Shown: positions 2,985-26,667, numbered from the stretch's first letter. The stretch is 33,933 bases of DNA from Dehalococcoidia bacterium (GCA_030605045.1 JAUWBK010000001.1:1-33933); one strand, 5' to 3'. The notes: generated by a model from the sequence alone, not told the origin. Numbers and translations are program-made.

Positions 2985-4265
2985 TTACCGTCTAACCATA
3001 CCTAGTTCTGCCTTGTCGTACGCGACAACGGCGCTCAACAGGATATTGGCGCCAGCAGCCACATGTTCGGGTTCGGTTTTCTCAATCTCATTGTGGCTGA
3101 TGCCGTTCTCACACGGGATAAAGATCATCGCCGTCGGTGCCACTCGGGCTATATAGACGGCGTCGTGACCGGCACCAGAGACCATGTCACGATGGCGATA
3201 GCCCAAGTCCTCGGCGGCAGCACGGACGACGCTGACGCAGACCTCATCGAACCTCATGGACGGAGAGTTCCAGATGCTTTCCAGCTTTGCCTTGAGACCC
3301 GTGTCTGTCGCGACCCTATCTACCATCACCTTAAGCTCTTTATCCATCTCGTCCAGCACGGCATCGTTCGGATGGCGGAGATCAACGGAGAAGAAGACGG
3401 ACCCTGGGATCACGTTACGCGAGTTCGGCTTAACCTCAACCAAGCCGACTGTCGAGACGGCGAGTGGCGCATGATTTAGGGCGATTTTGTTGATTGCCTC
3501 GACCATTCGGGCGCAGGCCACCATGGCGTCCTTGCGCATATTCATCGGTGTGCTGCCGGCATGACTTTCACGGCCAGTCACGGTGACATCGTACCAGCGC
3601 TGGCCCTGCACACCAGTGACCACGCCGATTGTCTTATTCTCGACCTCCAGAACCGGACCCTGCTCAATGTGAAACTCAAAGTAGGCACCCAGCTTCTGGT
3701 CACCGCATTTGGTCTTACCATGATAGCCGATGCGCTCCAGTTCCTCGCCAAACTTCTTGCCGTCGCGGTCCTCACGGGCATAGGCGAAGTCCCGGTCGAA
3801 CACGCCAGCAAATACGCCCGAGGCGAACATAGGCGGATTGAAGCGGGAGCCTTCCTCGTTAGTCCAGTTGATCACTTCCAGTGGTGCCTTAGTTGTGTAG
3901 CCAGCATCGTTCAGGGTGCACAATACCTCCAGACCCGAGAGCACACCAAGGATGCCATCAAACTTGCCACCCGAGGGCTGGGTATCGAGATGGCTACCCA
4001 TAGCGATCGGTGGCAGTGAGTTGTCCTTGCCCGGCCGCCGGACGAAAATGTTACCCATCTCATCGATGGTGACCGTGCCGTCAATCGACTCGCATGTCTT
4101 GACGAACCAATCGCGTATCTGGCGGTCGCTATCGGTCAACGTTAACCGGCAGATACCGCCCCTGGCAGTACCGCCAATCTTCGCCGTCTCCATGATGTTA
4201 TTCCATAGTCGTTCGGCGTTGACCCGCAGGTTTTGCCGGTTACCCTTTATTTTCTTGGTATTCAT
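2985..4265 (-). CDS. M20-family Zn amidohydrolase (allantoate amidohydrolase / N-carbamoyl-L-amino-acid hydrolase / beta-ureidopropionase type)
   Basis: 426-aa ORF with the hallmark GSHLDTQPSGGKFDGILGVLSGLEV, an N-terminal RLWNNIMETAKIGG...GGICRLTLTDSDRQIRDWF, and GAGHDA near the C-terminus. Confidence 0.85.
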   Translation of the reverse strand: MNTKKIKGNRQNLRVNAERLWNNIMETAKIGGTARGGICRLTLTDSDRQIRDWFVKTCESIDGTVTIDEMGNIFVRRPGKDNSLPPIAMGSHLDTQPSGGKFDGILGVLSGLEVLCTLNDAGYTTKAPLEVINWTNEEGSRFNPPMFASGVFAGVFDRDFAYAREDRDGKKFGEELERIGYHGKTKCGDQKLGAYFEFHIEQGPVLEVENKTIGVVTGVQGQRWYDVTVTGRESHAGSTPMNMRKDAMVACARMVEAINKIALNHAPLAVSTVGLVEVKPNSRNVIPGSVFFSVDLRHPNDAVLDEMDKELKVMVDRVATDTGLKAKLESIWNSPSMRFDEVCVSVVRAAAEDLGYRHRDMVSGAGHDAVYIARVAPTAMIFIPCENGISHNEIEKTEPEHVAAGANILLSAVVAYDKAELGMVRR

Positions 4266-8216: not shown

Positions 8217-9782
8217 ATGTCCTTAAGCAAACCGAATGCCAGTGCGGCAACGAGAACCAGAAATAGAGTATCAGCTGCACCTATCTCAGGGATGTGTGTT
8301 GCTTGCCTCGATAGCTGTCTTGGCCTATGTGAAGTAGGGCAATCTGCTTTAAGGGGTAGAGAGGCAATGTATCCACAGCCCTTTGGTAAGGTCAGTGTTG
8401 GAGCCGAAAAGGATTACCCGGTAGACTATTCTCATTTCAACATTCATGGTAGCTGTGTTGGGGCTTATGGTGTAGACGCCGACTCTGATAAAGCTACTTT
8501 CCAAGCCGTTGATGCTACGACAAAGGTTGGGCTCAAAGGTAAGGAAATAAAATTGAGGGTTCCTTTCTTCACCGGTGCCCTGGGTTCAACCGAGATAGCC
8601 CGGGTTTATTGGGAAGGAGCTGCCATAGGAGCTGCCATCTGCGGGACCATTATAATCTGCGGAGAGAATGTCTGTGGCATGGACCCTGATGCTGAAATAA
8701 AGAATGGGCGGGTCATCAAGTCTCCTGAATTAGACAGAAGGGTGAGAACCTTCCAGGATTGGTATGATGGCTACGGACTGTTGTTAGTCCAGGCAAATGT
8801 AGAGGATAGTCGCCTCGGTGTACTCGAATATGCGATAGAGAAACTTGGTGTTCAAGGAGTTGAGATAAAGTGGGGGCAAGGGGCAAAGGATATCGGTGGC
8901 GAGGTAAAGCTTCCGTCCCTAGAGAGAGCACGTCAGCTAAAGAGCAGAGGTTATCCTGTATTTCCTGACCCTGACGACCCGGTAGTTCAGGAAAGCTTTC
9001 ACATAGGAGAAATTGAAGAATTTGAGCGTCACTCACGACTGGGCATGGTAGACGAGGAATCATTCCATAGGGAGGTGGAAAGACTTCGAAGTGCAGGCGC
9101 CAAGTACGTTACCTTGAAGACAGGGGCCTATAGACCAGCCGACCTGGCTCGGGCCGTTAAGTTTTCTTCTGACACTAAAATAGACCTGCTCACCGTGGAT
9201 GGTGCCGGTGGAGGCACCGGAATGAGTCCGTGGCGGATGATGAATGAGTGGGGAATACCTACCGTGTATCTGGAGTGTCTCCTGTATGATTATCTTTCTC
9301 GGCTGGAAAAGAAAGGAGCTTATATTCCCAGTTGTGCCATTGCCGGCGGTATTGCTCTGGAGGATCAGGTATTCAAGGCTATTGCTTTAGGTGCTCCGTT
9401 TATAAAAGCAGTATGTCTCGGTCGCTCCACCCTCACTGCGGTTACCGTAGCTAAAGCCAACGCGGAAAAGCTTCGTAAGGAACATGAGAATGCAGAGCCC
9501 TACGAGAGAGCTTTGATGCAAACTTTTGTCAATGTGGCTCAGCTCAAGGCAAAATACGGAAAGGACTTTGCCCGAATTCCTCCAGCAGCGATTGGTATGT
9601 ATAACTACTATGAGCGATTAACCACCGGTCTGCAGCAACTTATGGCCGGAGCCAGGAAATTCCGCTTAGACCTAGTTAAGCGGGACGATCTTACGGCTCT
9701 CACCAGGGAGGCAGCGGAGATTTCTGGTATCCCTTACGTGATGGACGCTGACAAAGAGGAAGTGGACAAGATTTTAGCCTGA
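8217..9782 (+). CDS. glutamate synthase-related FMN-domain protein (stand-alone GltB domain-2 type)
   Basis: AAGGAGG sits 7 nt upstream of ATG 8217. N-terminal Cys cluster CVACLDSCLGLCEV. FMN-domain signature TVDGAGGGTGMSPW. 11-nt gap after hisF. Confidence 0.8.
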   Translation: MSLSKPNASAATRTRNRVSAAPISGMCVACLDSCLGLCEVGQSALRGREAMYPQPFGKVSVGAEKDYPVDYSHFNIHGSCVGAYGVDADSDKATFQAVDATTKVGLKGKEIKLRVPFFTGALGSTEIARVYWEGAAIGAAICGTIIICGENVCGMDPDAEIKNGRVIKSPELDRRVRTFQDWYDGYGLLLVQANVEDSRLGVLEYAIEKLGVQGVEIKWGQGAKDIGGEVKLPSLERARQLKSRGYPVFPDPDDPVVQESFHIGEIEEFERHSRLGMVDEESFHREVERLRSAGAKYVTLKTGAYRPADLARAVKFSSDTKIDLLTVDGAGGGTGMSPWRMMNEWGIPTVYLECLLYDYLSRLEKKGAYIPSCAIAGGIALEDQVFKAIALGAPFIKAVCLGRSTLTAVTVAKANAEKLRKEHENAEPYERALMQTFVNVAQLKAKYGKDFARIPPAAIGMYNYYERLTTGLQQLMAGARKFRLDLVKRDDLTALTREAAEISGIPYVMDADKEEVDKILA

Positions 9783-19763: not shown

Positions 19764-19803
19764 TTTTAACGAAGTTGTAATGAGCGTGTAACGATATCTT
19801 AAC
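19764..19803 (+). promoter_or_regulatory. array 3: four 11-bp-phased TTGTAAC-like direct repeats
   Basis: TTTTAAC 19764, TTGTAAT 19775, GTGTAAC 19786, TCTTAAC 19797. The spacing is exactly 11 bp, and the orientation matches the downstream + strand gene. Confidence 0.5.
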
Positions 19804-19822
19804 CTTTTGGGCTTTTTTTTAA

Positions 19823-19851
19823 TTGACAGGATGGTATCGAAAGGTTAGAAT
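19823..19851 (+). promoter_or_regulatory. sigma70-like promoter for the secreted-protein gene
   Basis: TTGACA 19823-19828, 17-nt spacer, TAGAAT 19846-19851. A T8 tract at 19813-20 lies just upstream. Confidence 0.5.
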
Positions 19852-19895
19852 TTAAGCATAATCATCCTAAATAGGTAAATTAGGAGGTGGAAAAA

Positions 19896-20372
19896 ATGAA
19901 AGCAAAATATATTTTATCTGGTTTACTAATGGTGGCACTGGTTATCGGTGGTATGGGATATGATGTAGCTGCTAAGGCGGGAGACAAGATAACTGGTGGT
20001 GGTACGTTTACGTGTTATAGTGGGAACCTAGATTATAATGACCACATTATGTCATTCGGGTTCAATGCCAAAGATTTGGGGGCTGGCAAAGGAAAAGGAC
20101 AATTTACACTTATTGACCATACTGCAAAAACAAAGATATTCGGTACTATTTCTGGATACAGTGCTAGCTTATTCTCGGTAAGTTTAGAAGGGATGTGCTC
20201 GATAGACGGAGTGGAAACAAGCTTTCGTGCTAGAGTAAAGGACAAAGGCGAGGGAAAACCCTCCAATAAATTGGATGTAATAGAAATTTGGTTTGGTGGT
20301 AATACTGGGAGGCCCGACATTTATGGTCAGATAGGTGGTGAGGAAGGAAAAGGTAACATACAGAGGCACTAA
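19896..20372 (+). CDS. secreted/exported hypothetical protein (158 aa)
   Basis: AGGAGG 19882-19887 then ATG 19896. Signal-peptide-like MKAKYILSGLLMVALVIGGMGYDVAAKA. The remainder is Gly-rich and predicted beta-rich. Family not recognised with confidence. Confidence 0.65.
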   Translation: MKAKYILSGLLMVALVIGGMGYDVAAKAGDKITGGGTFTCYSGNLDYNDHIMSFGFNAKDLGAGKGKGQFTLIDHTAKTKIFGTISGYSASLFSVSLEGMCSIDGVETSFRARVKDKGEGKPSNKLDVIEIWFGGNTGRPDIYGQIGGEEGKGNIQRH

Positions 20373-20427
20373 TAATAGCAAGAAAGAGATAATTGCAAAC
20401 ATTGGTTCAGTCCAGTAGAAACTGGTA

Positions 20428-20464
20428 AAAAGGTAGCCCGAAGTCAAACTTCGGGCTACCTTTT
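20428..20464. terminator. bidirectional rho-independent terminator
   Basis: AAAAGGTAGCCCGAAG tcaaa CTTCGGGCTACCTTTT: a perfect GC-rich stem flanked by an A-run and a T-run, between convergent genes. Confidence 0.8.
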
Positions 20465-20572
20465 ACTTTTACTGTATTTAAATTTCTTACATCTATCTAT
20501 TTGATTAGTTTTAAAAAATCTGGCCAATACTTTGAGGTATTTCATACGTATATGATTGCTTTAAAAAATTCA

Positions 20573-21685
20573 TCAATCATAGCTGTAGGTGAGAGGGTAT
20601 AGTTCGCTGCCCGGCAAGTCCGCTCGGCCATGCAGTTTTTCAGAATACCATATGTAACTATTATCCACGAGAACCTGGAAACCACCGGCAGCACCATATA
20701 ACTCCAGGTTAGTTAATGCAACGGTACCATTAGGTGCATATAGGACTGCGTCTACAACAGGCCCTTCTAACGTAATATTGCTGGAAAGTGACGTGATAAC
20801 GGGAATAGCTTCCGAACCATAACCCCCTCCAAATATCTCGACCTCTCCCTCGCAGATAATATGCTCATAACCCTCAATATGACCATTGTTGACTTGAACG
20901 TAGCCGAGAACGTATAGAGGACCTTCCAGTACCACCGTCGTCCAAGCATCTACTATCAGGTTTCCGGTAATGTATAGAGGTCCCACATTATAAGTATCCC
21001 CACCACTATATTGTAGGTCACCATTGTGGGTGCCGCCTTCTTTAGCGATGGTCTCATACAGTTCGGCGTTGGTGATAGGAAATGTCAAGTTAGCGCTGTA
21101 TTCAAAAACCTCGCCATTAACGTATTCTTGGCCACTAATCGTGCTTACAGCGGTAGCATCACCATTAACCGCGGTTTGACCTTTCTTGGGTCCTGCAATA
21201 TCTATAGTATTATTGGAATGTATATCTCCATCGCCCGAATCAGGGAATGAATCCACTACTGAATTGTAAATGCTAAGAGAATCTTTTGCAGCCAGAGCGA
21301 AGGCAAAGGCACCATGACTGAGGTTCACAATTGCTATAATCCTTGTCCGGCCACAGCCGCCACCACTGGCCGTGGAGTTAACACTAAAGATACCTCCACC
21401 CTGATATATAGCAGTTACATTTACGGTTCGGCCGTTGAGCTCAAAACTTTCCTCTAACGGCGTTTCTACATAAGTGCCTGAGTCCCCATATATCTTAGCC
21501 GTGGCATAGACCAGGCCGGCATCTGCGGAATAACTATTCAAGGTTTGACACTCAATTGACTGGTGATAGCCAAGGTTGGTAAATGAGCTCCGTAACAATG
21601 GAATTACCAGCAAACTGCCTACGGCCAGTAACATTAGGGCCATTATCAGGACTTGTCCAGATTCCCGGTTCTTGAACAACTTCAT
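20573..21685 (-). CDS. PilX-N-like minor pseudopilin with a large extracellular domain of possible beta-helix type
   Basis: ATG 21685 gives MKLFKNRESGQVLIMALMLLAVGSLLVIPLL (a GTG at 21706 overlapping the upstream stop is an alternative). It has a hydrophobic N-terminal helix without Glu5. The rest is rich in short repeats such as GDIHSNNTIDIAG, GPLYITGNLIV, GPLYVLGYVQV. Confidence 0.6.
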   Translation of the reverse strand: MKLFKNRESGQVLIMALMLLAVGSLLVIPLLRSSFTNLGYHQSIECQTLNSYSADAGLVYATAKIYGDSGTYVETPLEESFELNGRTVNVTAIYQGGGIFSVNSTASGGGCGRTRIIAIVNLSHGAFAFALAAKDSLSIYNSVVDSFPDSGDGDIHSNNTIDIAGPKKGQTAVNGDATAVSTISGQEYVNGEVFEYSANLTFPITNAELYETIAKEGGTHNGDLQYSGGDTYNVGPLYITGNLIVDAWTTVVLEGPLYVLGYVQVNNGHIEGYEHIICEGEVEIFGGGYGSEAIPVITSLSSNITLEGPVVDAVLYAPNGTVALTNLELYGAAGGFQVLVDNSYIWYSEKLHGRADLPGSELYPLTYSYD

Positions 21686-21702
21686 CTTTAGCTTCCCTGT
21701 CC

Positions 21703-22227
21703 TCACTCTTCTGCTCCTGTCCCGATCCTTTGACTAATTTCGTAAATCCTGGTTAACCCGCCTTTGTCTTTCACCGCTCTTACCGTTAGCTGATAGAGAT
21801 TGATAGTGGCATTCAGCGTATTAAATGTCGTATTGTCAGTATCTATGTAATCGGCAATTAATGTCTCTGAGACCAAAGTCTGTGAAGAGTCATATACCTT
21901 ACGCTTTAGCCTGGTGCCATTAAATGTATAATTGACACTGTAATCATTGTTCTCGTCCATATCAATCGGGACGCTAAGAGATAGTGGGAAACCGTTAGGG
22001 TCACCAGCCGTGATATTCCTTGCCGTCTGAACATCACGAGAAATCCAGTGTCCCGCGTTCTGTACCTGGGGCAAGACAGTATTTTGCTCGGCAGCTTGTC
22101 CGTGATTCAGCAACAATGTTGTCGTGGCAGTTGCAATTGCAACGACAACAAGGGCCATTATCCCTATCCCAATTACTGCCTCGAGTAAGGTAAATCCTTT
22201 TTCAGTCATTTTCACCATTTTAATCAT
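21703..22227 (-). CDS. prepilin-type N-terminal cleavage/methylation domain protein (type IV pilin / pseudopilin-like)
   Basis: Class III signal peptide ...MTEKG|FTLLEAVIGIGIMALVVVAIA with Glu at +5. Possible starts at 22227, 22218 or 22209. Confidence 0.75.
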   Translation of the reverse strand: MIKMVKMTEKGFTLLEAVIGIGIMALVVVAIATATTTLLLNHGQAAEQNTVLPQVQNAGHWISRDVQTARNITAGDPNGFPLSLSVPIDMDENNDYSVNYTFNGTRLKRKVYDSSQTLVSETLIADYIDTDNTTFNTLNATINLYQLTVRAVKDKGGLTRIYEISQRIGTGAEE

Positions 22228-22660
22228 TCAGTTTATAGAATGTAATAATTAGCTTTCCCTGCTCATTACGTTTAACCGTTACATTTACGCTTTGCAGTTC
22301 AAAACCGGTCTCATTACTGCTAATAACGATTTGCGGGGTATTTATTTCGATAGAATATCCGGCCGACAACAAATCGGCAGGAATATCTATTGGCTCGTAA
22401 CGGTTTGCCGGGTCACCAGGGTTATAATCGGCTACAGCGACATAATCTTGAACTTTAATGTATTCTATTTGTGATTTAGCCAAGCTCTCCGCAGCCACTC
22501 TCTCCTGGCTTACCTCAATGCCTTTAAACGTGGTTGTCATGCCACTCATAAAAGCAGTCGTAACCACTGCCACAATAGCCAGGCCGACTAAAATTTCAAT
22601 AAATGACAATCCTTGTTCACTCTTCATTTGTCTAACTAGCCTTATAAGTTGCATTGCCAT
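22220..22660 (-). CDS. prepilin-type N-terminal cleavage/methylation domain protein (pseudopilin-like)
   Basis: ...MKSEQG|LSFIEILVGLAIVAVVTTAF with Glu at +5. The start is ATG 22660 or 22627. It is the first gene of a three-gene overlapping operon. Confidence 0.7.
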   Translation of the reverse strand: MAMQLIRLVRQMKSEQGLSFIEILVGLAIVAVVTTAFMSGMTTTFKGIEVSQERVAAESLAKSQIEYIKVQDYVAVADYNPGDPANRYEPIDIPADLLSAGYSIEINTPQIVISSNETGFELQSVNVTVKRNEQGKLIITFYKLND

Positions 22661-22863
22661 TGAGTTCCCAGTTTAAAGCTTATTAATCTCAATTAAATAC
22701 TATAGCTATACGTGTAAAAAAGCAACCCTCAAAATGGTGAAAAAAGTATGAAAAATCCGCTTCACTCACCTCTGAGAGCCTCACCACCTCTTGTTGTTTA
22801 GCTGTCTTGGCGCCAACTGCTTACTGGGGTTACTTGCCCCGACCACCAATTCTACCTAGGACT

Positions 22864-22900
22864 ATTATACCATTCTAATAGTATGAGCGAGTGGTTACAA
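22864..22900 (-). promoter_or_regulatory. candidate promoter of the pseudopilin operon
   Basis: On the minus strand: TTGTAA (22900-22895, the proximal repeat unit), 17-nt spacer, TAGAAT (22877-22872). An overlapping TGgTATAAT has its -10 at 22869-22864. Confidence 0.4.
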
Positions 22901-22974
22901 TGAGGTTAAGAACAGTCCCGAAATGTTAAGGAAATGTTACAAAGAGGTTACAAGGAAGTTACAATTCGATACAA
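22894..22974 (-). promoter_or_regulatory. array 1: seven TTGTAAC-like direct repeats, mostly 11-bp phased, read on the minus strand
   Basis: On the plus strand: GTTACAA at 22894, 22936, 22947 and 22958; GTTAAG at 22905 and 22925; GATACAA at 22968. The spacings are 11, 20, 11, 11, 11 and 10. Confidence 0.55.
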
Positions 22975-23063
22975 ACACGAGGCAGCGGTAAGAGTCCCCG
23001 TAGCTACAGTCAAAGACGGTGACGTAGCATCTTATTAGCTATCTAATCATAGGTATCGTAGCC

Positions 23064-23092
23064 TTGATAATCACCTTAGTCAGTGTTAGAAT
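23064..23092 (+). promoter_or_regulatory. sigma70-like promoter for the kinase/regulator operon
   Basis: TTGATA 23064-23069, 17-nt spacer, TAGAAT 23087-23092. Confidence 0.45.
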
Positions 23093-23154
23093 TCAACCGC
23101 CTGAAGTATATTGGGTGAAGCTATAGTTCGTATACTATATAGAAGGGCAAACCT

Positions 23155-25377
23155 ATGACACTGCGTAGGAAGACACTGTTCATCATCGGGGCGACGTTCT
23201 ACGGCGTGATTATCCTGTTATTCTTCATATCACGTAACATCTTGCTGGACAGTTTCGTCGAACTGGAGAACCAAGATGTCTACCAGAATACTGAGCGAGT
23301 GCTGAGTACTTTGTCACATGAAGTCTCTCAGTTGGAGGCCACCACCGGTGATTGGGCAGCGTGGGATGATACCTACGCCTTCATTGAGGACGCTAACACC
23401 GAATATATTGAGTCGAATCTCATTGATAAAACTTTCATCGAGTTAAGGCTGAACTTAATGATGTTTATTGACTCCGCTGGCCAGACCGTCTTCGGCAAGG
23501 CTTTTGATCTGAATAATGAAGAAGAAGTACCTGTTCCTCAGAGCCTACAAGGACACCTTACCATCGGGGATATTCTGCTGACCCATCCTGACACTGAGAG
23601 CAGCATCTCCGGAATTGTCCTTCTTCCCGAAGGCCCGATGCTTATTGCCTCCCGTCCCATTTTGACCAGTGAAGATGAGGGTCCTATTCGTGGGGCACTG
23701 GTTATGGGACGCTTCCTGGATGCTACCGAAATGGAACGGTTTGCCGAGCTAACGCATTTGCCTCTCATCATGCATCGGTTCAGTGATGCGCAGATTCCTC
23801 CCGACTTCCAAGCCGTGCGTTCATCTTTGTCTGAAGAGAGACCGATTATCGTCCAACCACTAAATGAACAATCTATTGCCGGATACACCTTGATAGAAGA
23901 CATCTATGGGAAGCCAAGCCTGGTGCTGAGAGTGGATATGCCCAGAGACATCTATCAGCAGGGCCAGACCACGATTTCTTACCTTATCTTGTCGATAGTA
24001 GGGGTTGGTCTGATATTTGGCTTGACGACCATATTGCTTTTAGAGAGGCAGGTTCTGTCCCGGTTGTTTCACCTAAGCAAAAGTGTCAGTAGTATCGGCA
24101 CCAGTGGTGACCTCTCGGCGCGGGTATCAGTAGAAGGAGAGGATGAAATTTCCAACTTAGCGGGTACCATCAATGGCATGCTGGCCGCGCTGCAACAGTC
24201 CGAAAGTGAGCTAAAGGAGAGCGAAGAGCGCTACCGTCTGCTCGCTGAGAACGTAAGGGATGTCATCTGGACCATGGATATTAACCTGAGGTTTACCTAC
24301 ATCAGTCCTTCCGTCACCTCTATGCTAGGCTACAGCGTTGAGGAAGCAATGTCTCTCCCGTTCGAGGAACTTTTAACTCCTTCCTCTCTTGAGGCAGTCA
24401 AGAAGGCTTTTGCCGAAACACCGACTGTAGAGAGCATAAAGCAGGAAGGCCTTTCTTGGTCACCGACGCTGGAACTTGAGCTAAAGTGCAAGGATGGTGC
24501 CACTATCTGGGTAGAGGTCACGTCAACTTTCCTGCCTGACGCAGATGGCCAGCCTATTGGCTTTGTTGGAGTCGGACGTAACATCACCGAGCGAAAACGG
24601 GCGGAGGAAAAACTGCAAGAGCTTTACCATGAGGAAAAAACCCTGAGACAGGAATTGGAAGCAGAAATAAACAAAAGAGTCGAATTCACCAGGGTACTAG
24701 TCCATGAGTTAAAAACCCCAATCACTCCGGTGCTGGCTTCGAGCGAGTTACTGCTTGAAGAGCTCGAAGGGGGCCCCCTGCTCGACTTGGCGCAGAACAT
24801 TAGCCAGGGCGCCTACAATCTGAATCAGAGGATTGACGAACTTCTTGACCTGGCAAGGGGTGAAATAGGAATGCTTCGGCTGGAACCCGAATCAATGGAC
24901 CCGAGGCAACTACTCAAAGGCATAGTTGATAGTCTGATGCCCTTAGCCTTGAAAAATAGCCAAGTGCTAAGTTTTGAGTCCCCTTCTTCCCTGCCTTCAG
25001 TCTGGGCTGATGAAGACCGCTTACGCCAAGTTGTGCTCAATCTCATTAACAATGCCTTCAAATTTACTCCGGCGGGAGGGAGAATCACCTTACGAGCCAA
25101 GGAGGACGGTGCTAATCTTGTAGTGGAAGTTCAGGATACGGGTCGCGGGATAAGTAAGGAAGAACAAGAGCGGCTGTTTGAACCCTATCACCGGTTAGAA
25201 AGTGAAGTAGGACATCTTAGCGGGTTGGGGTTGGGGTTGAGCCTTTCCAAGATGTTAGTGGAACTTCACGGTGGAAAGATATGGGTGAAAAGCCAGAAGG
25301 GCAAAGGTAGTACCTTCGGCTTTTCCCTACCTTTAGAAGCTACCGCTCAGAGAGAAAAAAGTGTTAAAACAGAGTAA
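23155..25377 (+). CDS. sensor histidine kinase: TM, CHASE4-like periplasmic domain, TM, HAMP, PAS, HisKA, HATPase
   Basis: N-terminal TM FIIGATFYGVIILLFFI. CHASE4-like GDWAAWDDTYAFIEDAN...LMMFIDSAGQTVFGKAFD. Second TM ISYLILSIVGVGLIFGLTTILLL. PAS ERYRLLAENVRDVIWTMD. H-box LVHELKTPITP. N/G boxes LINNAFKFTP, DTGRGI, GLGLGLS. Confidence 0.9.
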   Translation: MTLRRKTLFIIGATFYGVIILLFFISRNILLDSFVELENQDVYQNTERVLSTLSHEVSQLEATTGDWAAWDDTYAFIEDANTEYIESNLIDKTFIELRLNLMMFIDSAGQTVFGKAFDLNNEEEVPVPQSLQGHLTIGDILLTHPDTESSISGIVLLPEGPMLIASRPILTSEDEGPIRGALVMGRFLDATEMERFAELTHLPLIMHRFSDAQIPPDFQAVRSSLSEERPIIVQPLNEQSIAGYTLIEDIYGKPSLVLRVDMPRDIYQQGQTTISYLILSIVGVGLIFGLTTILLLERQVLSRLFHLSKSVSSIGTSGDLSARVSVEGEDEISNLAGTINGMLAALQQSESELKESEERYRLLAENVRDVIWTMDINLRFTYISPSVTSMLGYSVEEAMSLPFEELLTPSSLEAVKKAFAETPTVESIKQEGLSWSPTLELELKCKDGATIWVEVTSTFLPDADGQPIGFVGVGRNITERKRAEEKLQELYHEEKTLRQELEAEINKRVEFTRVLVHELKTPITPVLASSELLLEELEGGPLLDLAQNISQGAYNLNQRIDELLDLARGEIGMLRLEPESMDPRQLLKGIVDSLMPLALKNSQVLSFESPSSLPSVWADEDRLRQVVLNLINNAFKFTPAGGRITLRAKEDGANLVVEVQDTGRGISKEEQERLFEPYHRLESEVGHLSGLGLGLSLSKMLVELHGGKIWVKSQKGKGSTFGFSLPLEATAQREKSVKTE

Positions 25378-25382
25378 AGGTT

Positions 25383-26066
25383 ATGAAAGTCCTTATCATT
25401 GAAAATGACCAGACAATTGTAGAAGCTATTTCCCTAGCTCTCCAGCTAAGTTGGCCTGAAGCTAAATTAGTCTCCACTCATCTCGGAGAGAGGGGAATAG
25501 AGCTGGTAGAGAGTGAAAATCCTGATGTTGTCATCCTTGACCTGGGGCTTGATGATCTAAGTGGCTTTGAGGTGTTGAAGCAGATACGTCTTTTTTCCAC
25601 TGTCCCCATCCTCATTCTGACGGTGAGGTCAGATGAAGCTGATGTAGTCAAAGGACTGGAGTGGGGAGCCGACGATTATGTGGTTAAACCTTTTCGGCAA
25701 CTGGAACTTCTGTCACGGATACAAGCTTTGACACGACGGGGAGGTCTTCTAGTTGAAGAAGCACCTCTGGTTTGCGGACAATTGCGCTTTAACCCGGCTA
25801 CTTGGCAGTTATTTCATGGTGAAAAGGAGATAAATCTCACTCCTACCGAAGGTTCTATTCTCGGTCACCTGATGAAAAAAGCCGGTCGAGTGGTAACCCA
25901 CTCCAGCCTTGCCGAATCGGTATGGGGTGAGAATTACCCGGATGTGACGAGCAGCCTCAAGGTTTATATCCATCACCTGCGGGAAAAACTGGAAGCTGAC
26001 CCGAGTAATCCGCAGATTATTCTCACCAAGTCTGGCATAGGCTACTTACTGGCAAAGCCAGACTAA
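25383..26066 (+). CDS. OmpR/PhoB-family response regulator (receiver plus winged-helix DNA-binding domain)
   Basis: MKVLIIENDQ, phospho-acceptor context VVILDLGLDD, DYVVKPF, and C-terminal winged helix LTPTEGSILGHLM...VYIHHLREKLE...GIGYLL. 5-nt gap after the kinase gene. Confidence 0.9.
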   Translation: MKVLIIENDQTIVEAISLALQLSWPEAKLVSTHLGERGIELVESENPDVVILDLGLDDLSGFEVLKQIRLFSTVPILILTVRSDEADVVKGLEWGADDYVVKPFRQLELLSRIQALTRRGGLLVEEAPLVCGQLRFNPATWQLFHGEKEINLTPTEGSILGHLMKKAGRVVTHSSLAESVWGENYPDVTSSLKVYIHHLREKLEADPSNPQIILTKSGIGYLLAKPD

Positions 26067-26096
26067 CTGAATATCTAACCACTTATTTTTACCAAA

Positions 26097-26137
26097 TTGT
26101 AACTACTTTGTAACCTTTTTATAACCTTTTTGTAACC
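26097..26137 (+). promoter_or_regulatory. array 2: four exactly 11-bp-phased TTGTAAC(C) direct repeats
   Basis: TTGTAAC 26097, TTGTAACC 26108, TTATAACC 26119, TTGTAACC 26130. It begins 31 nt after the regulator's stop and lies upstream of the + strand gene at 26281. Confidence 0.55.
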
Positions 26138-26280
26138 ACAGGCGTGTAGACTAGAGAGTAGAAATAACGATGCGAATACCAGTTTTCGAGAGCAAAAAGA
26201 ACGGGATAGAAGTTAACTGCTTCCTTAAAATGGGAGAGAATTCGAGTTGGTAAGCCTGGCCAAAATTTCAAGGAGAAAGC

Positions 26281-26667
26281 ATGCTGGACGAAGCTGAAGT
26301 TCCCAAGCAAATTAGCCCAGAAATGGAAGAGGCGGCCACCCAGAAGGCAATAATCAGAGCCAGAGCGGCAAGGTGGGACCTTGATGTGGCTGTCTTCTTG
26401 TTCGCCATTTTGATTATTATCATAATCCTACTCTTCCAGGAAGTGGTCATTGAGGTGGTGGCACCAGTCGCCATTTTTGGCTTAGCCACGGTCTGGCTCA
26501 TAGGGTGGAGACGAGGGAAACAACTATATCAGCGTTTCTACGATGAAGAGCTATTGAAATTGGAGCAAGGGTCAAAGGAGTCAATTGAGGGAGCGGTTAA
26601 GGAAGTGGTGGAAACAGTAGAGGATATAGTTAAGAAGGCACTGCGCGAGAGATGGCAGAATGAGTAA
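26281..26667 (+). CDS. small membrane protein (128 aa, two predicted TM helices, acidic coiled tail); function unknown
   Basis: AAGGAG 26270-26275 then ATG 26281. Hydrophobic segments VAVFLFAILIIIIILLF and VVAPVAIFGLATVWLIGW. Confidence 0.6.
   Translation: MLDEAEVPKQISPEMEEAATQKAIIRARAARWDLDVAVFLFAILIIIIILLFQEVVIEVVAPVAIFGLATVWLIGWRRGKQLYQRFYDEELLKLEQGSKESIEGAVKEVVETVEDIVKKALRERWQNE

Follow-up and report, generated by a model that had tools for sequence, protein, structure and literature searches.

Phased TTGTAAC arrays next to an OmpR/PhoB-type regulator mark a predicted local regulon of surface-protein genes in a Dehalococcoidia bacterium

We analysed a 33,933 nt stretch of DNA from a Dehalococcoidia bacterium (GCA_030605045.1, JAUWBK010000001.1:1-33933; this whole stretch is referred to as the window, and positions are counted from its first letter). 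Within it, a sensor histidine kinase and an OmpR/PhoB-family response regulator lie among three units for putative surface proteins, namely an exported protein of 158 aa (sec158), an operon of three pilin-like genes (pil146, pil174 and p377) and a small membrane protein of 128 aa (tm128). Each of the three units is preceded by an array of TTGTAAC-like heptamers with a period of 11 bp. Our data make it probable that the adjacent regulator binds these arrays and controls the three neighbouring units. A local regulon of this kind had been suggested in an earlier note on the same DNA, and this reading is supported by the association of the motif with orthologues of the regulator, by the period of 11, by the recurrence of the same targets and by the conservation of the array in front of sec158.

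Array 1 (19764–19803, plus strand) was seen by weight matrix, dimer count and reading of the sequence, and comprises four heptamers (TTTTAAC at 19764, TTGTAAT at 19775, GTGTAAC at 19786, TCTTAAC at 19797). Array 3 (26097–26136, plus strand) also has four (TTGTAAC at 26097 and 26108, TTATAAC at 26119, TTGTAAC at 26130), and TTTTTAC at 26086 is a weak additional unit. Array 2 (22974–22894, minus strand) is directed at the pilin operon and contains seven recognisable heptamers and one degenerate unit (TTGTATC at 22974; TTGTAAC at 22964, 22953 and 22942; CCTTAAC at 22931; the degenerate unit at 22920; TCTTAAC at 22911; TTGTAAC at 22900). Four of its units are perfect TTGTAAC, and the spacings are 10, 11, 11, 11, 20 and 11 bp. 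The claim of three arrays, each directed at its own downstream gene, was confirmed by reading, shuffles, repeat finder and weight matrix. A uniform spacing of 11 bp holds for arrays 1 and 3, while array 2 deviates by its single 10 bp spacing and its degenerate unit.

The exact heptamer TTGTAAC occurs at seven sites in the window, all of them within arrays 2 and 3. For the dimer TGTAAC-N5-TGTAAC with up to two mismatches, 15 matches were observed versus 1.74 expected; this number was not attained in any of 100 shuffles, and the three arrays account for 11 of the matches. Tandem Repeats Finder reported period-11 repeats in the window at 22936–22964 and 26107–26137 only. Chains of three units were found seven times by the weight matrix, always in the arrays, compared to 0.02 in the shuffles (maximum 1). 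In the rest of the 33.9 kb window there is no further phased array of the TTGTAAC kind, which bears out, by repeat finder and weight-matrix chains, what had earlier been judged by eye.

In a metagenome scan with the regulator we obtained 80 loci with orthologues that are 59–97% identical. When hexamers were counted with no motif assumed beforehand, TGTAAC was the top hexamer on the same strand within 350 bp past the regulator stop codon (80 observed versus 3.2 expected in the 80 loci). The distances from TAAC to TAAC downstream of the regulator orthologues show sharp peaks at 11 and 22 bp and broader ones at 31–33 and 42–43 bp. Dimer density just downstream of the regulator is 3.68 per kb versus 0.034 per kb-strand elsewhere in the same loci, a difference of about 110-fold. 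At least one dimer is present in 42 of 75 loci and at least two in 33 of 75, and dimers occur in 11 of the 12 loci with a regulator at least 75% identical. A motif-blind count of triple phased hexamers returned period 11 only (18 of 75 loci; 0–2 at the other periods from 8 to 14), with 0 of 225 in the controls. The phased 11 bp motif is present beside regulator orthologues, and it is not evenly spread over the loci. In distant orthologues the repeated word changes to TGTTAC, TGTAAT or TCGTAA, which is what a co-evolving regulator and operator would produce.

These results bear on the simplest alternative, that the repeats are a chance or compositional feature of AT-rich intergenic DNA, or relics of mobile elements, without a regulatory role. 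The guanine-cytosine (GC) content of the region is indeed somewhat lower than in the flanks, although the AT-richness pointed out earlier is only modest (GC 41–45% at 20–23 kb versus 47–55%), and the block of sec158 and the pilin genes is missing from one closely related locus (L001). However, shuffles never reached the observed counts in the window, period 11 alone is enriched, the heptamers are kept while the spacers change, and the motif follows the regulator orthologues through dozens of unrelated metagenomes. The shuffles, the enrichment of period 11 only and the association with orthologues effectively refute a chance or compositional origin, and we consider this explanation hardly conceivable.

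The gene calls made earlier for the two signalling proteins hold in Pfam. The kinase (23155–25377, plus strand) has a first transmembrane segment (TM1), an extracytoplasmic CHASE4 domain located between the two hydrophobic segments, a second transmembrane segment (TM2), and HAMP, PAS, HisKA and HATPase domains; an exact-sequence look-up found no identical sequence of it on record. The regulator (25383–26066, plus strand) consists of Response_reg (1.3e-23) and Trans_reg_C (2.5e-23), and its closest PDB relatives are the generic family members KdpE, RegX3 and MtrA. Residues D53, T80, Y99 and K102 are invariant in 81 regulator sequences. All 33 loci whose sequence reaches far enough have an orthologue of the kinase as the gene immediately before the regulator. 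CHASE4 occurs in only 9 of these 33 kinases, the rest having a short loop or extra PAS domains, so that it cannot be regarded as a fixed part of the module as described in the earlier note. Among the orthologous kinases (L032–L111) the transmitter is common and the sensor modules are swapped: many have the layout TM1-short loop-TM2, and some contain between two and four PAS domains. The kinase-regulator operon has a promoter apart from array 2 (23064–23092, plus strand; TTGATA, 17 bp, and the TG-extended TAGAAT of TGtTAGAAT). Autoregulation via array 2 was considered and is unsupported, since this strong promoter of its own lies about 90 bp past the oppositely directed array; no arrays were found upstream of orthologous kinases.

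The position of the arrays relative to the promoters gives information on the direction of regulation. In orthologue loci that have the final TGTAAC as their promoter-proximal unit, the occurrence of a −10-like TAnnnT peaks 8–10 nt past the proximal heptamer. At tm128 the likely −10 box is TAGACT (26147–26152, plus strand), 10 nt past the proximal heptamer, and L004, L001 and L032–L037 retain TAnACT at an identical distance. At the pilin promoter the candidate −10 boxes (22864–22883, minus strand) are TACTAT (22883–22878, also 10 nt past the proximal heptamer), TAGAAT and TGgTATAAT. Neither the pilin promoter (array 2) nor the tm128 promoter (array 3) has a −35 element, and a simple promoter scan paired only an array-2 heptamer itself with the neighbouring TAGAAT. 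At these promoters the proximal heptamers are at about −29 to −23, and the next unit covers the position of the −35 element. In the Pho-box arrangement, about 10 bp separate the box from the −10 element downstream of it, and a fixed offset of 8–10 nt to the −10 box is, according to Makino and Blanco et al., reportedly the geometry of PhoB as an activator.

The situation at sec158 is different. Its promoter (19823–19851, plus strand; TTGACA, 17 bp, TAGAAT at 19846–19851) has 11 of 12 matches to the sigma-70 consensus. The last unit of array 1 begins 26 bp upstream of the −35 element, and the unit centres are near −58, −69, −80 and −91. Array 1 at about −55 to −95, above a complete promoter, is in a class-I-like position.

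With this arrangement the regulator might instead be a repressor, with the heptamers over the −35 element and spacer of the pilin and tm128 promoters occluding RNA polymerase and the signal relieving or imposing the block. Binding at about −29 to −23 and over −35 could block polymerase, and the near-consensus promoter of sec158 would be active alone. On the other hand, the lack of a −35 element at arrays 2 and 3 is what activator-dependent promoters of the Pho-box type typically show, occlusion is impossible at array 1, which is wholly upstream of its promoter, and the fixed offset to the −10 box across orthologues matches the activator geometry said to hold for PhoB. We therefore consider repression quite unlikely and activation by the regulator the better reading.

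The genes behind the arrays recur between loci. The most common first gene encodes a protein of about 130–160 aa with weak similarity to receivers, without acidic pair or Lys, and this pseudo-receiver gene usually precedes a tm128 orthologue. Other first genes are sec158-like (L039, L054, L057), pilin genes (L051, L107, L109, the window and L004) or tm128. The tm128 gene of the window (26281–26667, plus strand) encodes a two-TM hydrophobic hairpin and a charged helical tail, and its 128 aa product has no family match; orthologues stand behind an array in L032–L035, L040, L042, L001 and L004. Between array 3 and tm128 lies a frameshifted remnant of the pseudo-receiver gene (26170–26253, plus strand; 28 codons, MRIPVFESKK.. 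continued in the +1 frame by ..KLTASLK). The intact gene is, in relatives (L033–L037, L040, L052), the first one behind the array, ahead of tm128, and its loss is common to the window, L032 and L004. The leader of tm128 does not fold more stably than shuffled sequences (z 1.53).

In the pilin operon, pil146 (22220–22660, minus strand) and pil174 (21703–22227, minus strand) encode type IV pilin-like proteins with the motifs EQG/LSFIEILV and EKG/FTLLEAV, respectively. Both match N_methyl of Pfam, with weak additional matches to GspI, ComGE and PilV for pil146 and to GspJ and ComGE for pil174. The third gene, p377 (20573–21706, minus strand), more likely starts at the ATG at 21685 (370 aa) than at the GTG at 21706 (377 aa). 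Its product is pilin-like: in the AlphaFold2 model (predicted local distance difference test, pLDDT, 85) a beta-solenoid follows a long hydrophobic helix at the N-terminus; the helix itself is PilX_N-like only at E 0.25. The top Foldseek match in the PDB was ComZ (6qvi, E 2.4e-8), with a TM-score of about 0.3 and an identity of about 12%, which suggests a ComZ-like tip pilin and is treated here as a lead. We found 120 homologues of p377, the named ones all from Dehalococcoidia or Chloroflexota, some of which match DUF7305.

Array 2 is conserved in L032 and L004. In L004 (1140–1622) a deletion of 13 bp removes the proximal heptamer (compare 22894–22906 of the window), and the rest of the intergenic region between pilin operon and kinase is about 85–90% identical to the window. 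The pilin operon has a leader of about 200 nt (22661–22866, minus strand) that is conserved with L004 and contains a hairpin and a subsequent U-run. The hairpin is followed by UUGCUUUUUU and could be an attenuator. The fold of this leader is no more stable than those of shuffles (z 0.22), and Rfam at gathering thresholds gave no RNA family in any part of the window, which means that the leaders do not belong to known riboswitches. Of 59 loci, 5 have prepilin-like reading frames in the 4 kb that follow the regulator, versus 0 of 42 controls. A dedicated pilus regulator is rejected, because only about 10% of the orthologue loci have pilins close to the regulator gene. Pilins appear to be one recurrent target among several, neither universal nor defining.

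The sec158 gene (19896–20372, plus strand) encodes an exported 158 aa beta-barrel with an N-terminal signal or anchor and a lipobox-like region with Tyr in place of Cys. The AlphaFold2 model (pLDDT 75) is a small all-beta barrel, and the NCBIfam model post_COAP_1 scores 32.7 bits versus a cutoff of 40, which is sub-threshold. Foldseek gave weak lipocalin and nitrophorin matches; with E values of 0.02 or worse these are too weak for assigning a function of this kind. The statement that the proteins behind the arrays have no recognisable function is therefore true for tm128, which has no family, but has to be modified for p377, which models as ComZ-like, and for sec158, with its barrel and its sub-threshold post-COAP-1 match. 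Residues 1–36 of sec158 (19896–20003) are almost invariant in 19 homologues, and the mature barrel is about 45–55% identical. Distant homologues (L039, L054, L057) have a lipobox Cys (LGGVGC) where the clade of the window has GGTGY. A hairpin with a perfect stem of 17 bp and U-runs on both strands (20428–20464) lies between the convergent genes sec158 and p377 and is probably a bidirectional terminator. The genes flanking the whole module are metabolic.

Four further loci (L113, L115–L117) have pil146, pil174, a sec158-like gene and p377 in this order in a single cluster on one strand, and neither a kinase nor a regulator is encoded nearby. Despite this, the layout of array 1 stands in front of the sec158 homologue (43% identical): TTTTAAC/TTGTAAC/CTGTAAT heptamers, TTTTGGGC, then TTGACT-17-TAGAAT/TAAAAT. 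Because arrays precede targets in these loci without a local regulator, the regulon appears to exist in trans as well as locally. In L113 (6260–6330) and at the equivalent positions of L115–L117 the distal TTGTAAT dimer before the pil146 homologue is inverted (TTACAAAATTATTACAA). The same pil146 homologues have a single forward proximal TTGTAAT beside the −10 box.

The closest relatives of the window kinase are encoded in L004 (83% identical) and L001 (81%), from Dehalococcoidales and Dehalococcoidaceae metagenome-assembled genomes. Neither locus has the regulator gene. A 42 bp internal fragment is left in L004 at 3826–3867 (compare 25572–25613 of the window), and a 50 bp 3′ fragment in L001 at 9726–9775 (compare 25980–26029). 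Because different fragments remain, the two losses were independent. In both loci the kinase frame and the downstream array heptamers are intact and the spacers vary, with synonymous divergence (dS) of the kinase at 0.44 and 0.75; the array 3 heptamers are identical in L004, and only the spacers differ.

The window regulator itself differs from its family at two sites. Codon 8 encodes Asn in the window and 8 relatives, giving E-N-D in the acidic pocket, whereas 71 of 81 sequences have Asp (E-D-D). At codons 197 and 198 the recognition helix reads IHHL instead of the family's IRRL (Arg-Arg in 72 and 68 of 81), which is part of the family pattern ..SLKV[HY]IRRLREKL..; this His-His variant is common to the window regulator and L032 only. 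The two His residues align with R200 and R201 of PhoB, and R201 contacts a base in the PhoB-DNA structure.

These observations lead to another alternative, in which the arrays are genuine OmpR-family operators mainly served by a paralogue encoded elsewhere, while the adjacent regulator is decaying or re-purposed. It would fit the independent deletions in L004 and L001, with kinase frames and heptamers intact despite the dS of 0.44–0.75, the change of IRRL to IHHL and of EDD to END in the window, the tandem regulator paralogues present in L086 and L097, and the arrays without local regulator in L113 and L115–L117. It is harder to reconcile with the very strong and positional link between orthologue and array, most loci having the array immediately behind the stop codon of the regulator. 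Furthermore, the window regulator is still under purifying selection (ratio of nonsynonymous to synonymous rates, dN/dS, 0.12–0.36), its phosphotransfer residues are intact apart from the Asn substitution, and L032, which has the same HH variant, retains perfect arrays. A paralogue as the main user of the arrays is consequently considered unlikely.

Several points weigh against control of the three units by the adjacent regulator. About a quarter of the orthologue loci, mainly a clade at about 72–74% identity, have no nearby array. The co-direction of array and gene is not universal, as seen from the inverted distal dimer in L113 and L115–L117. Array 1 precedes a near-consensus promoter that may not need an activator. 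The His-His and Asn changes could weaken DNA binding or phosphorylation, and the arrays in L004 and L001 may use a regulator encoded elsewhere or be decaying. Among the window's roughly 30 genes there are none for pilus assembly (prepilin peptidase, PilB-type ATPase, PilC platform). Taken together, the facts leave room for a trans-acting paralogue or for an ongoing dismantling of the circuit in the lineage of the window.

For direct control by the adjacent regulator we propose the following course of events. The membrane kinase would sense an extracytoplasmic signal and phosphorylate the adjacent regulator on Asp53. The phosphorylated regulator would then form head-to-tail dimers or higher oligomers on TTGTAAC heptamers that are 4 bp apart and repeat every 11 bp. 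At the pilin and tm128 promoters it would take the place of the −35 contact and switch on transcription, in the manner of PhoB at a Pho box, and at the sec158 promoter it would act from a class-I position upstream of the complete promoter. The predicted outputs are a minor-pilin-like set with a ComZ-like beta-solenoid pilin, probably forming a pilus-tip complex; the putative small exported beta-barrel sec158, whose gene lies within this pilin cluster in relatives; and the small two-TM protein tm128, in relatives presumably co-transcribed with the pseudo-receiver that has decayed in the window.

Comparison with known systems places this arrangement within a standard design. PhoB binds 7 bp repeats separated by 4 bp, resulting in a period of 11 bp (PMC4971064). 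The window resembles PhoR-PhoB and the Pho box of Escherichia coli in its winged-helix regulator and in direct repeats of 7 bp plus 4 bp, the sites here being predicted, and furthermore in having several repeats in a row with proximal ends about 10 bp above the −10 box and no −35 element. It differs in the repeated word (TTGTAAC here, CTGTCAT in the Pho box), in the extracytoplasmic CHASE4 domain that PhoR lacks, and in the score of the regulator for TIGR02154 (150 bits versus a cutoff of 296). The PhoB regulon comprises targets for phosphate uptake, whereas pilins and surface proteins are the predicted targets here; no phosphate (pst/pho) genes are present in the window.

For WalR the consensus is TGTWAH-N5-TGTWAH (PMC4168254). 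TGTAAC-N5-TGTAAC fits it exactly, but this consensus is OmpR-family-wide and not diagnostic. WalK-WalR (YycG-YycF/VicK-VicR) of Firmicutes is also similar in the architecture of the kinase, with extracytoplasmic sensor, HAMP, PAS, HisKA and HATPase, and in a regulon, predicted in our case, that encodes cell-envelope proteins. In contrast, the scores are far from the cutoffs (HK_WalK 177 bits versus 725; resp_reg_YycF 148 versus 340), the sensor here is CHASE4, walH, walI and walJ are missing, and the host belongs to the Chloroflexota. WalR is essential, whereas a regulator of the window type is dispensable in close relatives, where it was deleted. Membership in a named system was rejected altogether, since all NCBIfam equivalogs (WalK/WalR, PhoR/PhoB, MtrAB, KdpDE and the rest) are far below their cutoffs. 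The region had been put forward as a candidate for an undescribed system; this does not stand for its architecture, which is the standard Pho-box/WalR-box layout with a heptamer that literally fits the WalR consensus.

With regard to function, the nearest analogues are FimS-AlgR and PilS-PilR (pilA), which likewise exert two-component control of a pilin operon. FimS-AlgR controls the minor-pilin operon fimU-pilVWXY1E in Pseudomonas aeruginosa (PMC5979040). However, AlgR is a LytTR and PilR an NtrC/sigma-54 regulator, so that DNA-binding domain and site architecture are unlike those of the window regulator. ComZ of Thermus thermophilus is a competence-associated pilin for which a position at the pilus tip and binding of DNA have been argued (PMC6561018). 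Like ComZ-PilA2, p377 combines a pilin helix with a large beta-solenoid and is encoded together with two small pilins. Apart from the low identity (~12%) and TM-score (~0.3), it differs from that system in that the window has no genes for competence or pilus machinery and in the adjacent exported beta-barrel sec158, which has no counterpart in the ComZ system.

We put forward, as a tentative and rather doubtful idea, that pil146, pil174, sec158 and p377 could form a new pilus-tip assembly, made up of two minor pilins, a ComZ-like solenoid pilin and an exported beta-barrel as dedicated partner, for DNA uptake or attachment in the wall-less Dehalococcoidia. A cue from outside the cell would turn it on via a family of TTGTAAC-reading regulators, and the circuit would be undergoing rewiring or dismantling in the lineage of the window. 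The last part is suggested because the regulator was deleted twice in sister lineages, the recognition helix is mutated and the pseudo-receiver was lost. If the pilus-tip reading were true, the operator code of TTGTAAC at an 11 bp phase could be read directly from metagenomes.

Our understanding of two-component regulation is not changed by these findings, which represent a textbook Pho-box/WalR-box design. Operators that outlive a repeatedly lost regulator may offer a small, tidy case for circuit decay or takeover by a paralogue. Dehalococcoidia are abundant in the subsurface and mostly uncultured, and almost no experimentally defined regulons exist for them. Here a regulator family, its putative operator motif and its recurrent targets were read from sequence alone, with strong comparative support. 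It should be possible to predict from scans for TGTAAC-N5-TGTAAC arrays when pilus-related surface structures are deployed by these organisms.

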